From: an uncultured Chloroflexia bacterium | Lineage (GTDB): Bacteria; Chloroflexota; Limnocylindria; Limnocylindrales; CSP1-4 | Assembly (NCBI GenBank): GCA_963696045.1 | Contig: CAVOIR010000007.1 | Location: forward strand, 20,665 to 84,664 | DNA length: 64,000 nucleotides | Direction: 5' to 3' | Program-made: the position numbers and the translations under genes | Shown here: positions 43,433 through 46,023 of the stretch, piece after piece | Layout: each line of letters opens with the position of its first letter | Position numbering within the stretch: the first letter of the stretch is position 1 | Notes under the pieces: model-generated | Seen by the model: the letters and a program-made list of their open reading frames with translations, nothing else | What the model was told of the DNA's origin: nothing | Databases searched by the model: none

Positions 43433-46023
43433 ATGACCGACACCCTGCCCCAGACCAGCCAGCCTGCCCTGGACGAGGCCGCCGAGCGACTGCTCAGCAG
43501 CCAGTCGCCGCAGCGCCGCCTGGTCTCGCCGGCCTTCAGCCTCGAGATCGACGGCCGGACGCTGACCGGTCGGGGCGGCCAGACCATCCTGGATGTCTGC
43601 CGGGACAACGGCATCGAGGTACCCACCCTCTGCTACGAGCCCAAGCTGCCCGGCTTCGGCGCCTGTCGCATGTGCGTCGTCGAGGTCGAGGGCGAGGAGT
43701 CTCCGCCCATCTCCTGCTCGCGCCCGGCGGAGGCGGACATGGTCGTGCGGACCCAGACGCCGAGGCTGCGACAGATCCGCAAGACGAACCTCGAGCTCAT
43801 CTTCAGCGACCACAACGCCTACTGCCTGCCGCCCTGCCAGAACAAGTGCCCCAGCCACATCGACATCCCGGGCTTCCTGAAGGCCAACACCGAGGGCGAC
43901 TTCGTCGAGTCGGCGCGGATCTTCAAGCGCACCATCCCGTTCCCCTCGATCCTGGGCCGGGTCTGCCCGGCGCCCTGCGAGGAGCACTGCCGTCGCGACG
44001 AGGTCGAGGAGGCCATCGCCATCCGCGACAGCCACCGCTACGCTGGTGACCAGGTCCTGAAGCTCCAGGCTGCCGGCGCCCAGCCGCCTCGGCCATTCGA
44101 GCTGCAGCCATCCACCGGCCGGCGGGTGGCCGTCATCGGTTCGGGCCCGGCGGGCATGGCGGCCGCCTATTACCTGGCCCTCGACGGTCACGGCGTGACC
44201 GTCTTCGAACGCGACCCGGAGCCCGGCGGCATGCTGCGCTACGGCATCCCCCAGTACCGGCTGCCCAAGGTCGAGGTCCTCGAGGCCGAGTACGAGTCCG
44301 TCTGGGACCTCGGTGTCCGCCTCGTGGCCAACGCCGAGCTCGGGGTGGACTTCACGCTCGACGACCTGCAGAACGAGGGCTACGACGCGGTCCTCGTGGC
44401 CATCGGCTGCTACGACACGAACGAGCTGGGCATCCCGGGAGAGGACGCCACGGGCGTCATCGACGGCCTCGAGTACCTGCGCGTCGCGACACTTGGCCTG
44501 CCCTACCCGGACCATGCGGGCAAGCGGGTGGTCGTCATCGGCGGTGGCTTCACGTCGATGGACTGCGCACGCACCTCGATCCGCCAGGGCTGCTCGCGAG
44601 GTGACGCTCGTCTACCGGCGCGACATGAAGGACATGCCCGCCGCCAACGAGGTCCACGAGATGCTCGAGGAGGGCGCCCGGGCCATCTTCCAGGCCTCGC
44701 CGACGCGCGTCGTGACCGACGCGTCCGGGACGGTGACCGGCGTGGAGTTCCAGCGCATGGCACTCGGCGCCCCGGACGCATCGGGCCGCCGGCGACCGGA
44801 GCCCATGGCCGGCACCGAGTTCATCATCGACTGCGATCGCGTCCTGCTGGCCATCGGCCAGGCGCCCGACCTCACCTGGCTGACGCGCGGTGCGGAGGGT
44901 GTGCGAGCTTCGTCGCGCGGACGCCTCGAGGCCGACGCAGTGACCTTCGGGACCGGGCGGGCGGGCGTCTTCGGCACGGGCGATGTGCGCACCGGGTCCG
45001 CCACCGTCGTGGAGGCCATCGCCGAGGGCCGTCGCGCCTCGTATGCCATCAACGCCTACCTGCAGGGCCAGGACCTCGACGAGATCAGGACCCGCCAGAT
45101 CGCTCGCCGAACCGCAACCCGAGTTCCTGTCGATCGTGCCCTACAGCGGCGAGGTCAAGGAGCCACGCCTCCGGCTGCGCTCCATGGCTCCCGCCGAACG
45201 GAGCAGCTCGTACGTCGAGTACGAGATCCCCTACACGCAGGCCGAGGCGATGCGCGAGTCGGCCCGCTGCCTGCAGTGCACGTGCGAGGCCATCGGCTAC
45301 TGCGACCTGCGCCGCCAGGGCATCGAGTACGGGACGACGCTGCGGACGCTCGAGCCTGGACGGACCGGCCTGTCGGTGCGCAGCGTGGCCGAGAACCGCT
45401 TCACGGGCGCCAACCACGACTACATCCGCGACGACAGCCACGCCTTCATCCTGCGCGAGCCATCCCGCTGCATCGACTGCGGCCGCTGCGCCAACGTCTG
45501 CAAGGAGGTCGTCGGCGCGGCCTGCTACGACTTCATGCGCACGGGCTTCGACACGCTCGTGACGACGCCGCTGGACATGAGCCTGAACACGACGCCCTGC
45601 GTCTCGTGCGGCCGCTGCGCCGAGACGTGCCCGACTGGTGCACTCATGCCCAAGCCGCGAGTCCTCGAGAAGTACGAGGTCGACGAGTCACGCTGCATCC
45701 TCTGCGGCATCTGCGTGGATGCCTGCCCTTACGACGCCCTGCGCTGCGGTCCGGACTTCGAGCTCGCCCACGAGTCGCGCGAGGAGCCCATGATCGATCT
45801 CATGGCCATCTCCGCCATGGAACGCGACACCGAGATCAGCTACGTGCGCCGTGAGCGCGACTGGCTGGCGCGGGCCCAGGCCGACGGGCGTGACGTCCCG
45901 CGCGATCGGTCGCTGCCCGTGCTGCCGGTGAGCCTGGCCGGCAACGGCTCGGCGCAGGGTCGCCATCATGGAGGCGTCGCCGGAGCGACCGGCGGTGGCT
46001 CGACACACGCCCATCACAGGTAG
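43433..46023 (+). CDS. chimeric FeS flavoprotein: NuoG/HydA-type 2Fe-2S domain, GltD-like FAD/NAD(P)H oxidoreductase, NuoG/HydA-type 4Fe-4S domains, and the NuoI C-terminal half; 2 frame shifts (~44588, ~45100); no molybdopterin domain
   Basis: ORF 43433..: [69 protein letters not shown]...[67 protein letters not shown]. Frame of ORF 44313: REVTLVYRRDMKDMPAANEVHE...RVLLAIGQAPD...[33 protein letters not shown]. Frame of ORF 44983: CLQCTCEAIGYCDLRRQGIEYG, SRCIDCGRCANVCKEVVG, CVSCGRCAETCPTGAL, KYEVDESRCILCGICVDACPYDALRCGPDFELAHESREE. Confidence 0.8.

Follow-up and report, generated by a model that had tools for sequence, protein, structure and literature searches.

A complex I gene cluster of Limnocylindria with a split nuoI and an input module related to Nfn-Bfu/Stn transhydrogenases

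Complex I is generally regarded as an enzyme that depends strictly on NADH or, in its 11-subunit form, on ferredoxin. Could a complex of this type also take electrons directly from reduced nicotinamide adenine dinucleotide phosphate (NADPH)? This question is raised by a nuo gene cluster at 36.8–52.0 kb of a 64,000-nucleotide stretch of DNA (the window: positions 20,665 to 84,664 of contig CAVOIR010000007.1, assembly GCA_963696045.1; about 70% G+C) from a soil/freshwater Chloroflexota genome. A preliminary description had noticed in this cluster a NuoG/HydA-type Fe-S subunit without the molybdopterin (MopB) domain of NuoG and with an embedded GltD-type flavin adenine dinucleotide (FAD)/NAD(P)H domain. 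We call this 2Fe-2S/GltD/Fe-S subunit G', and the N- and C-terminal halves of NuoI are referred to as I_N and I_C. Positions are those of the window, and all features are on the + strand. We consider it fairly probable that the cluster encodes a proton-pumping, quinone-reducing complex I with an input module derived from Nfn-Bfu/Stn enzymes, acting as a non-bifurcating NAD(P)H:quinone oxidoreductase. The module probably lets the proton pump use NADPH directly.

A protein search for G' homologues covered 5.8 billion proteins. A scan with one genome per species found a relative of G' encoded in at least 504 genomes. The best 80 of these were compared as loci of 20 kb, corresponding to 35 metagenome-assembled genomes (MAGs) of Thermoleophilia/Actinomycetes (loci L002–L036) and 45 mainly of Limnocylindria/Chloroflexota (loci L037–L081, Limnocylindria-type). 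Motif and domain counts for the NuoF-like and NuoE-like proteins refer to 34 Limnocylindria and 24 Thermoleophilia loci.

The GltD-containing subunit and the relatives of its trio

The closest solved relatives of G' are the large subunits of soluble NADPH transhydrogenases. In the PDB, residues 35–765 of G' matched best NfnA of Caldicellulosiruptor saccharolyticus (Csac; 9bov_A, E 1.8e-162), followed by Sporomusa ovata StnC (8oh5_C, E 6.5e-149) and an archaeal NfnA (9n5u_A, E 1e-134). Identity with these proteins is roughly 40–45%, and all cysteine motifs are aligned in 9bov_A and 8oh5_C. The adjacent NuoF-like protein scored 1e-111 to 1e-99 against NfnB, StnB and HydB, ahead of NuoF (1e-79), with matches covering residues 124–525 of the 584 residues of the NfnB/StnB chain. 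The NuoE-like part scored best against NfnC, StnA and HydC. The preliminary description had given the subunit NuoE- and NuoF-like neighbours of the Nfn-Bfu/Stn type, and the best PDB matches of all three proteins agree with it. These similarities indicate that the trio derives from soluble Nfn-Bfu/Stn NADPH transhydrogenases and not from canonical NuoEFG.

It has been reported that NfnA and StnC start with a 2Fe-2S domain, that a GltD/NfnL-like domain for FAD and NADPH with two 4Fe-4S clusters is inserted between this domain and the NuoG-type clusters, and that both proteins end in a catalytically inactive Fdh/MopB-like domain (PMC10482914, PMC11829005). In the window, the G'::I_C gene occupies 43433–46023 and is read in three frames, for reasons discussed in the last section. 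The first segment (43433–44596, frame 2, residues 1–388) contains the 2Fe-2S domain with its cysteine motif at 43628–43717, the GltD Fe-S motifs, the FAD fold with GxGxxG at 44126–44158, and the start of the NADPH fold. A motif H-x3-C-x3-C-x3-CP is located at 43811–43852 and a further peptide cited in the preliminary description at 43958–43990. The second Rossmann fold is found at 44528–44572, with LVYRR at 44607–44642. The second segment (44598–45101, frame 0, residues 389–556) holds the remainder of the NADPH/FAD domain, including LVYRRDMKDMPA and GVFGTGDV. The third starts in frame 1 with a linker and the NuoG-type cluster motifs (45103–45657), namely the all-cysteine N5/A3-like motif RCLQCTCEAIGYC (45265–45303), the N4/A2 motif RCIDCGRCANVC (45466–45501) and the A4 motif CVSCGRCAETCP (45598–45633); its last part (45658–46023) encodes the C-terminal half of NuoI, behind which a variable tail runs to the stop codon. 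All the peptides cited in the preliminary description are present on the + strand in the order claimed.

Pfam detected Fer2_4 (residues 35–109), Fer4_20 (residues 131–209), Pyr_redox_2 (profile positions 2–160 in one frame and 163–291 in the next), Fer4_Nqo3 and Fer4 dicluster domains in G'. No molybdopterin family was found in G' by Pfam, and tblastn with two MopB domains of related proteins gave no match in the 64-kb window; the homologues of 845–894 aa are likewise devoid of MopB. Pfam, tblastn and the PDB matches (E 1e-162 to 1e-134, not explicable by chance) thus all agree with the subunit architecture as first described.

None of the ligand motifs of the Nfn/Stn large chain is missing from G': the motifs of the FAD and NADPH folds are present, as are those for the 2Fe-2S cluster A1/N1b, for both clusters of the GltD domain and for the A3/N5-like, A2/N4-like and A4 clusters. 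The arginine of the FAD site (GGMLRYGIP) is conserved between G' and NfnABC/StnABC. In the alignment, EVTLVYRRDMKDMPA of the second Rossmann fold falls on the equivalent segment of Csac NfnA and StnC, both of which are NADPH-dependent (PMC11829005, PMC10482914). The pattern shared by this part of the NADPH fold, GGGxxxxD...VYRRxxxxMPA, is conserved in both nuo-embedded lineages. With xYRRxxxxMPA in common with NADPH-dependent StnC and Csac NfnA, the use of NADPH as donor, as first suggested, is plausible. Two positions differ from StnC. K170 of StnC, a lysine ligand of the FAD-adjacent 4Fe-4S cluster reported to be strictly conserved in StnC, has Glu as its equivalent in NfnB and is replaced by His in the window protein (IRDSHRY, 44021–44041), His being the consensus in both nuo-embedded lineages. 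The position of StnC C114 is occupied by Ile in the window. His and Ile at these two sites may tune the potential of the first cluster. A 17-residue insertion, GTTLRTLEPGRTGLSVR (45307–45357), comes right after the N5-like motif; it is conserved in Limnocylindria G' and absent in Thermoleophilia.

The parallel with the solved enzymes, NfnABC of C. saccharolyticus (9BOV/9BP5) and StnABC of S. ovata (8OH5), extends to the genes. In each case there are three, in the same order of homology (E-like, F-like, large subunit), and the large subunit has the same succession of 2Fe-2S domain, GltD/NfnL-like insert with two 4Fe-4S clusters, A3, A2 and A4, with the NADPH-type YRR segment in common. In contrast to these enzymes, G' has no Fdh/MopB-like domain (cluster A5, tetramerisation). 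One half of NuoI ends the large subunit in its place, and the other half begins the E-like subunit. The F-like subunit is without the N-terminal domain and, in Limnocylindria, also without the C-terminal B3/B4 ferredoxin-binding domain. Finally, the genes are located within the operon of a membrane complex, and the product is predicted to be non-bifurcating.

In an unrooted neighbour-joining tree built on 696 shared columns, the nuo-embedded G' proteins were monophyletic in 100/100 bootstraps against 45 MopB-containing representatives, and the sequences compared indicate a single origin for them. Among representatives at 50% identity, almost all relatives are StnC-like proteins of 950–1400 aa, and only one other cluster has a NuoI tail (P0129, 816 aa, 44% identity). 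None of the curated NCBIfam models reaches its cutoff on the NuoF-like or G' proteins; the NuoF-like protein of the window scores 338 with nuoF_fam, whose cutoff is 558. In the source annotations, G' is called 'FAD-dependent oxidoreductase' or 'formate dehydrogenase major subunit'. Under these names, the key subunit escapes pathway surveys.

The split nuoI and the surrounding cluster

The preliminary description let the G' gene end at 45650. This is wrong, as the stop codon is at 46021–46023 and the last part of the gene encodes the C-terminal half of NuoI. This half is attached 20 residues after the A4 motif of G'. Its core (45658–45795) corresponds to positions 71–116 of the 121 positions of the NCBIfam NuoI model TIGR01971 (E 6e-17), with the motifs RCILCGICVDACP (45691–45729) and GPDFELA (45748–45768). 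In the PDB, the G' tail (RCILCGICVDACPYDAL...GPDFELA) matches the C-half of NuoI/TYKY with E 3e-14 and weaker. The other half is located two genes upstream, at the start of a 279-aa fusion protein, I_N::E (41227–42066, identified by PDB and TIGR01971 matches). Here, 41266–41466 corresponds to TIGR01971 positions 1–66 (E 3e-12) and contains a single CxxCxxCxxxCP motif, KCETCFQCAAACP (41395–41433). Residues 11–83 of this protein match the N-half of NuoI/TYKY in the PDB, and residues 110–271 match NfnC, StnA, HydC and NuoE, the NuoE-like 2Fe-2S thioredoxin domain starting at about 41590. Both CxxCxxCxxxCP motifs of NuoI are therefore present, but on two polypeptides. When I_N and I_C were joined in silico, they covered positions 1–116 of TIGR01971 with 106 bits, against a curated cutoff of 113 bits. 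No further piece of NuoI and no second nuoI were found in the 64-kb window.

The order of the cluster is A-B-C-D-H-[I_N::E]-F-[G'::I_C]-J-K-L-M-N, with the E-F-G' trio in frame within nuoI. Upstream of the trio are nuoA (36812–37231; Pfam Oxidored_q4, E 4e-26), nuoB (37239–37958; Oxidored_q6), nuoC and nuoD, read in the window as a single 597-aa open reading frame (ORF; 38048–39841; Complex1_30kDa, Complex1_49kDa), and nuoH, directly 3' of nuoD as in 11-subunit operons (39887–41227; NADHdh, E 2e-98; best PDB match cyanobacterial NdhA, E 1e-71). Between the two fusion genes lies the gene for the NuoF-like flavin mononucleotide (FMN) subunit, reduced to its core (42077–43375; Complex1_51K, SLBB, NADH_4Fe-4S). 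Downstream follow nuoJ (46041–46623; Oxidored_q3 over two frames, with tblastn support and an intact orthologue of 203 aa; one frameshift near 46385–46395), nuoK (46620–46931; Oxidored_q2), nuoL (46940–48934; Proton_antipo_N, _M and _C), nuoM (48934–50509; Proton_antipo_M profile positions 1–209 and 210–290 in two frames, with tblastn support and an intact orthologue of 519 aa; one frameshift near 49978) and nuoN (50506–52029; Proton_antipo_M, tblastn). All seven membrane subunits (A, H, J, K, L, M and N) were thus detected by Pfam. NuoB has the cluster N2 motifs LACCAMEM, GDCTCSGG and VPGCPP, and NuoD has the quinone-site loop GPQHPSTHG and the C-terminus LDPIMGGIDK, without NiFe cysteines. 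With the N2 cysteines and this loop, the Q-module looks like that of an ordinary quinone-reducing complex I. The gaps between genes across the cluster range from -4 to 89 nt and no terminator-like site was found between them, in line with the initial placement of the subunit inside a nuo cluster. What that description overlooked, while its account of the subunit architecture stands, are the split NuoI, both fusions and the relocation of nuoH, besides the true end of the gene.

Compared with the canonical 14-subunit complex I (Nqo1–14 of Thermus thermophilus, NuoA–N of Escherichia coli), the encoded complex shares the membrane subunits, the N2 ligands of NuoB, the quinone loop of NuoC/NuoD, both NuoI motifs, an FMN subunit related to NuoF, a NuoE-like subunit, and the N-terminal 2Fe-2S, N5-like and N4 motifs of NuoG. 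The canonical gene order is ABCDEFGHIJKLMN, whereas here it is ABCDH..JKLMN with E-F-G' inside nuoI, and NuoI is made of two polypeptides. In contrast to canonical NuoG, G' has no MopB domain but a second flavin/nucleotide site and three extra 4Fe-4S clusters, and its N5-like cluster is all-cysteine (C-x2-C-x-C-x5-C) where canonical N5 is ligated by a histidine.

If the insert is removed, the order becomes A-B-C-D-H-I-J-K-L-M-N, which is that of the 11-subunit NDH-1 operon. We infer an 11-subunit NDH-1 ancestor from gene order only. PDB similarity, used as a test of this descent, placed NuoH closest to NdhA and did not discriminate for NuoD. In the ferredoxin-dependent NDH-1 of cyanobacteria and chloroplasts, the NdhI end is the docking site of the electron donor. 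Here, the equivalent end is where the new module is covalently joined; in contrast to NDH-1, the complex has a flavoprotein input module of its own.

Two other systems resemble the one studied here. In Mbx-like complexes a GltD-type NAD(P)H flavoprotein is likewise found at the NuoI position of a complex-I-related module; as described, these complexes belong to the Mbh/Mbx branch (Mrp-antiporter, hydrogenase-like) and GltD replaces NuoI (Degli Esposti 2015, PMC4758237). Here, by contrast, NuoI is kept, although split, the Q-module is quinone-reducing and GltD is embedded in the NuoG-like subunit. The second system is 'Nuo-Bfu', predicted in Geobacter, Deferribacteres, Planctomycetes and Nitrospirae (Schut et al. 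2022, PMC9304861). The initial statement that trios of this kind never occur in complex I operons is dated by that prediction, albeit Nuo-Bfu is without the GltD domain. As described, Nuo-Bfu has the full set of BfuB clusters (B1–B5), no GltD/NADPH domain and 14 separate subunits including NuoI, and it has been proposed to confurcate NADH and ferredoxin (PMC9304861). In the window the module is of the Nfn type, trimmed and fused into a split NuoI, and the phyla are different. Schut et al. make no mention of Actinobacteria or NuoI, and tie Chloroflexi only to Mbh-Bfu and Por-Bfu and to neither the Nuo nor the Nfn type (PMC9304861). In the published full text searched, no complex I with an Nfn-type NADPH module or with a split NuoI was described. 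In its membrane and Q modules the enzyme is a complex I, and in the descent of its input module it belongs to Nfn-Bfu. It fails defining features of both families: of complex I because NuoI is not a single chain and NuoG is without MopB, of Nfn-Bfu because the terminal domains of BfuB, the Fdh-like domain and the StnC lysine are missing. Apparently, an EFG-like module has been recruited here a second time, independently, from a Bfu-family transhydrogenase, with a nuoI gene cut in two as the scar. The arrangement thereby bears on the origin of the N-module of complex I.

Proposed electron entry in two lineages

The operon is present in many uncultured Limnocylindria and Thermoleophilia genomes. 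Among the matches listed, at least 120 intact single-ORF homologues of 845–894 aa share 79–92% identity with G'::I_C, those with a named source being from Chloroflexota/Candidatus Limnocylindrales MAGs, and at least 120 single-ORF homologues of 685–880 aa are from Thermoleophilia (Actinomycetota). The preliminary description had named as alternatives that the GltD segment might become a separate gene after repair of the frames, or that 43.4–45.6 kb might be an assembly insertion. The first fails, as the intact homologues are single ORFs of 845–894 aa, and the second is contradicted by the same architecture in the 80 loci. Gene order, including both fusions, is identical in both phyla. Both lineages also retain the I_N motif and all motifs of G'::I_C for Fe-S clusters, FAD and the NADPH fold, and the GltD domain has mean pairwise identities of 0.82 and 0.78 in the two. 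This conservation of intact ORFs, gene order and motifs argues that the target gene is real and under selection. A Limnocylindria-type operon was also found in MAGs labelled Dormiibacterota, Patescibacteria or Anaerolineae (L054, L074, L051 and L061); these are probably binning or labelling errors and not true hosts.

How could electrons pass from such a module into the complex? In Csac NfnABC the reported path runs from NADPH via FAD-A7-A6-A3-A2-A1 to the B1-FMN-C1 site, with A4 and A5 as an off-path branch toward the Fdh-like domain (PMC11829005). The Fdh-like domain of NfnABC comes after A4, with the NfnC N-terminal domain in a cleft against it (PMC11829005). As I_C takes the place of the Fdh-like domain and I_N is placed on the N-terminus of the NfnC/NuoE homologue, both junctions point to the same site. 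We propose that I_N and I_C reassemble into the N6a/N6b ferredoxin fold, which would link the module to N2 in NuoB, the rebuilt NuoI fold being at the place held by the Fdh-like domain (cluster A5) in NfnABC. NADPH would be oxidised at the GltD FAD, and its electrons would follow the path NADPH-FAD-A7-A6-A3-A2-(A4)-N6a-N6b-N2 to menaquinone. For NADH, provided that the FMN site is still active, entry would be via N3/B1-A1-A2, which would make A2 the junction. NADH and NADPH both reduce menaquinone exergonically. As the ferredoxin-binding domain is moreover missing, bifurcation is not expected in Limnocylindria.

Several observations weigh against this proposal, or against parts of it. NADPH specificity and the electron path are deduced from homology only. 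The exit from G' to N6a might be the N5-like cluster, as in canonical complex I, and not A4. Two nucleotide sites on one Fe-S chain could short-circuit electrons from NADPH to NAD+, and no gating mechanism against this is visible in the sequence. Every carrier is an uncultured MAG, with no cultured carrier among the top matches, and there is a small probability that the operon is a real pseudogene in this one genome. Finally, the NuoF-like and NuoE-like proteins of Limnocylindria are altered. The N3 motif of the window protein is ACGKTIPC (43094–43120; CGKTIPC...C), with three cysteines and Thr for the second; this Thr is present in 31 of the 34 Limnocylindria proteins. The Asp of the NADE motif (window site 42317–42361) is Tyr or Phe in all 34, and the Glu of NNVET is retained in only five. 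The NuoE-like part has CRCxxC, with an additional cysteine, plus one Cys, the fourth canonical cysteine being replaced by Ser or another residue. The NADH branch may therefore not work in Limnocylindria. The degenerate NuoF motifs may also bear on how a short circuit is avoided. In Thermoleophilia, the FMN, N3 and NuoE cluster motifs are canonical.

These alterations could mean that the complex uses NADPH only, with NuoE and NuoF of Limnocylindria as a structural relic, a dead FMN/N3/N1a chain and the GltD FAD as sole input. The replaced residues of N3, NADE and NNVET and the lost fourth cysteine of NuoE are in favour of such a complex, as is the low conservation of the NuoF-like protein, which in Limnocylindria has the lowest mean pairwise identity of the three input-module proteins (0.59, against 0.80 for G'::I_C), whereas both proteins are at 0.76 in Thermoleophilia. 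However, in the NuoF-like proteins of Limnocylindria GRGGAG and GEET are still invariant, as are three of the N3 cysteines out of four. NuoE retains four conserved cysteines (CRCxxC + C), so that a cluster may still bind. Every genome examined has these genes intact and free of internal stops, which speaks for some function. A complex restricted to NADPH is unlikely in our opinion, and we retain the NAD(P)H:quinone oxidoreductase with two potential entry sites.

Could ferredoxin be a further partner, in an electron-confurcating or bifurcating 'Nuo-Bfu' enzyme? The ancestors of the trio are bifurcating enzymes of the Nfn-Bfu/Stn type, and membrane-bound Nuo-Bfu complexes have been predicted by Schut et al. 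(PMC9304861). Moreover, the NuoF-like proteins of Thermoleophilia (about 508 aa) keep the C-terminal 2x[4Fe-4S] domain of BfuB (B3/B4) in 21 of 24 loci; for example, that of L012 matches residues 100–583 of the 584 residues of Sporomusa StnB with E 4e-228. In Limnocylindria this domain is absent from all 34 loci, and the window protein ends 21 aa after its NADH_4Fe-4S domain. The N-terminal thioredoxin-like domain of BfuB (B2/B5 or Zn sites) is absent in both lineages, the matches starting at residue 124 for the window and at residue 100 for Thermoleophilia. The confurcating module envisaged in the preliminary description thus finds no support in Limnocylindria, both terminal domains being missing from the NuoF-like protein. 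In addition, the proposed bifurcation site, B1-FMN-C1, is altered here in the ligands of both B1 and C1, and coupling is not needed for a menaquinone reduction that is exergonic with either nucleotide. We regard a confurcating or bifurcating enzyme that also uses ferredoxin as highly improbable here. The Thermoleophilia version is possibly a ferredoxin-linked, perhaps bifurcating, membrane complex.

The same device could also run in reverse, the proton-motive force driving electrons from menaquinol to the GltD FAD, where NADPH would be formed for biosynthesis, e.g. when quinone-level donors support growth. Reversibility is a property of complex I as well as of Nfn/Stn enzymes. Stn has been reported to work in both directions (PMC10482914). 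The device would be identical to that proposed above, and no result obtained here favours either direction, which is not readable from sequence. Nothing in the window or in the related loci ties the operon to lithotrophic donors, however, and the flanking genes are housekeeping genes. Reverse operation as the main role is quite unlikely in our view.

A broader scenario would embrace both lineages. In it, an input module from a bifurcating NADPH transhydrogenase was inserted into nuoI independently of NuoEFG; the FMN/NADH branch then decayed in Limnocylindria, making the enzyme in effect an NADPH-specific proton pump, whereas in Thermoleophilia, which have the ferredoxin domain, the complex could couple NADPH, NADH, ferredoxin and menaquinone. 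As a whole, this combination is doubtful. The two lineages, one with the ferredoxin domain and the other without it and with altered flavin and cluster ligands, constitute a natural series for the question of which parts of the Bfu core bifurcation needs. Limnocylindria and Thermoleophilia are common in soil and freshwater metagenomes, and a wired-in NADPH site, if true, would change models of redox balance and energy yield for both.

Reading frames of the cluster and of the window

A plot of G+C at third codon positions (GC3) and tblastn with an intact homologue both show that the coding frame of the target gene changes twice. The two frame shifts noticed earlier near 44588 and 45100 are thus real, and are now located at 44597 (extra C, TGCTCG[C]GAGGTG) and 45102 (extra G, CAGATC[G]CTCGCC). 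Once these two bases are removed, an 862-aa ORF is obtained that aligns end-to-end and without gaps with its intact homologue (P0001, 862 aa), with 92.8% identity.

Such frame changes could mean that in this genome the nuo operon is decaying into pseudogenes, with real frameshifts and nothing functional. Within 15 kb, at least five disruptions are indeed counted: G'::I_C has two, nuoJ and nuoM have one each, and the end of nuoC probably has another. Unrelated genes of the window are equally dense in disruptions, however. A liv-type branched-chain amino acid ABC (ATP-binding cassette) transporter at 7298–11757 (two BPD_transp_2 permeases, two ABC ATPases) has at least five frame changes, and the Pfam profile runs on across the breaks. 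In the target gene, the GC3 signal is above 0.85 in each shifted frame, and there are no in-frame stops and no deletions, besides the gap-free identity to the intact homologue. Related loci from MFD-labelled MAGs, which we take to be long-read assemblies, have similar frameshifts at other positions. Decay of the operon is very unlikely in the light of these data. The two frameshifts of the target gene are most likely assembly indels, since frameshifts occur all over the window, including nuoJ, nuoM and the liv-type genes.

Two other explanations were considered and rejected. Programmed frameshifting is ruled out, as the homologues need no shift and related MAGs shift at other positions. An artefactual insertion during assembly is also ruled out, as architecture and gene order are the same in 80 independent loci.

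At the nuoC/nuoD boundary (38540–38640), the frame-0 reading ends in ...AAGA*, with a TGA that overlaps the ATG of nuoD, and nuoC and nuoD are separate genes in L001 and L044. The 597-aa NuoCD 'fusion' is probably another indel artefact. The sequence around both extra bases of the target gene is of the TCGC type (CTCG[C]GAG and ATC[G]CTCGCC), and base calling could have erred systematically at a recurring motif, perhaps a methylated one.

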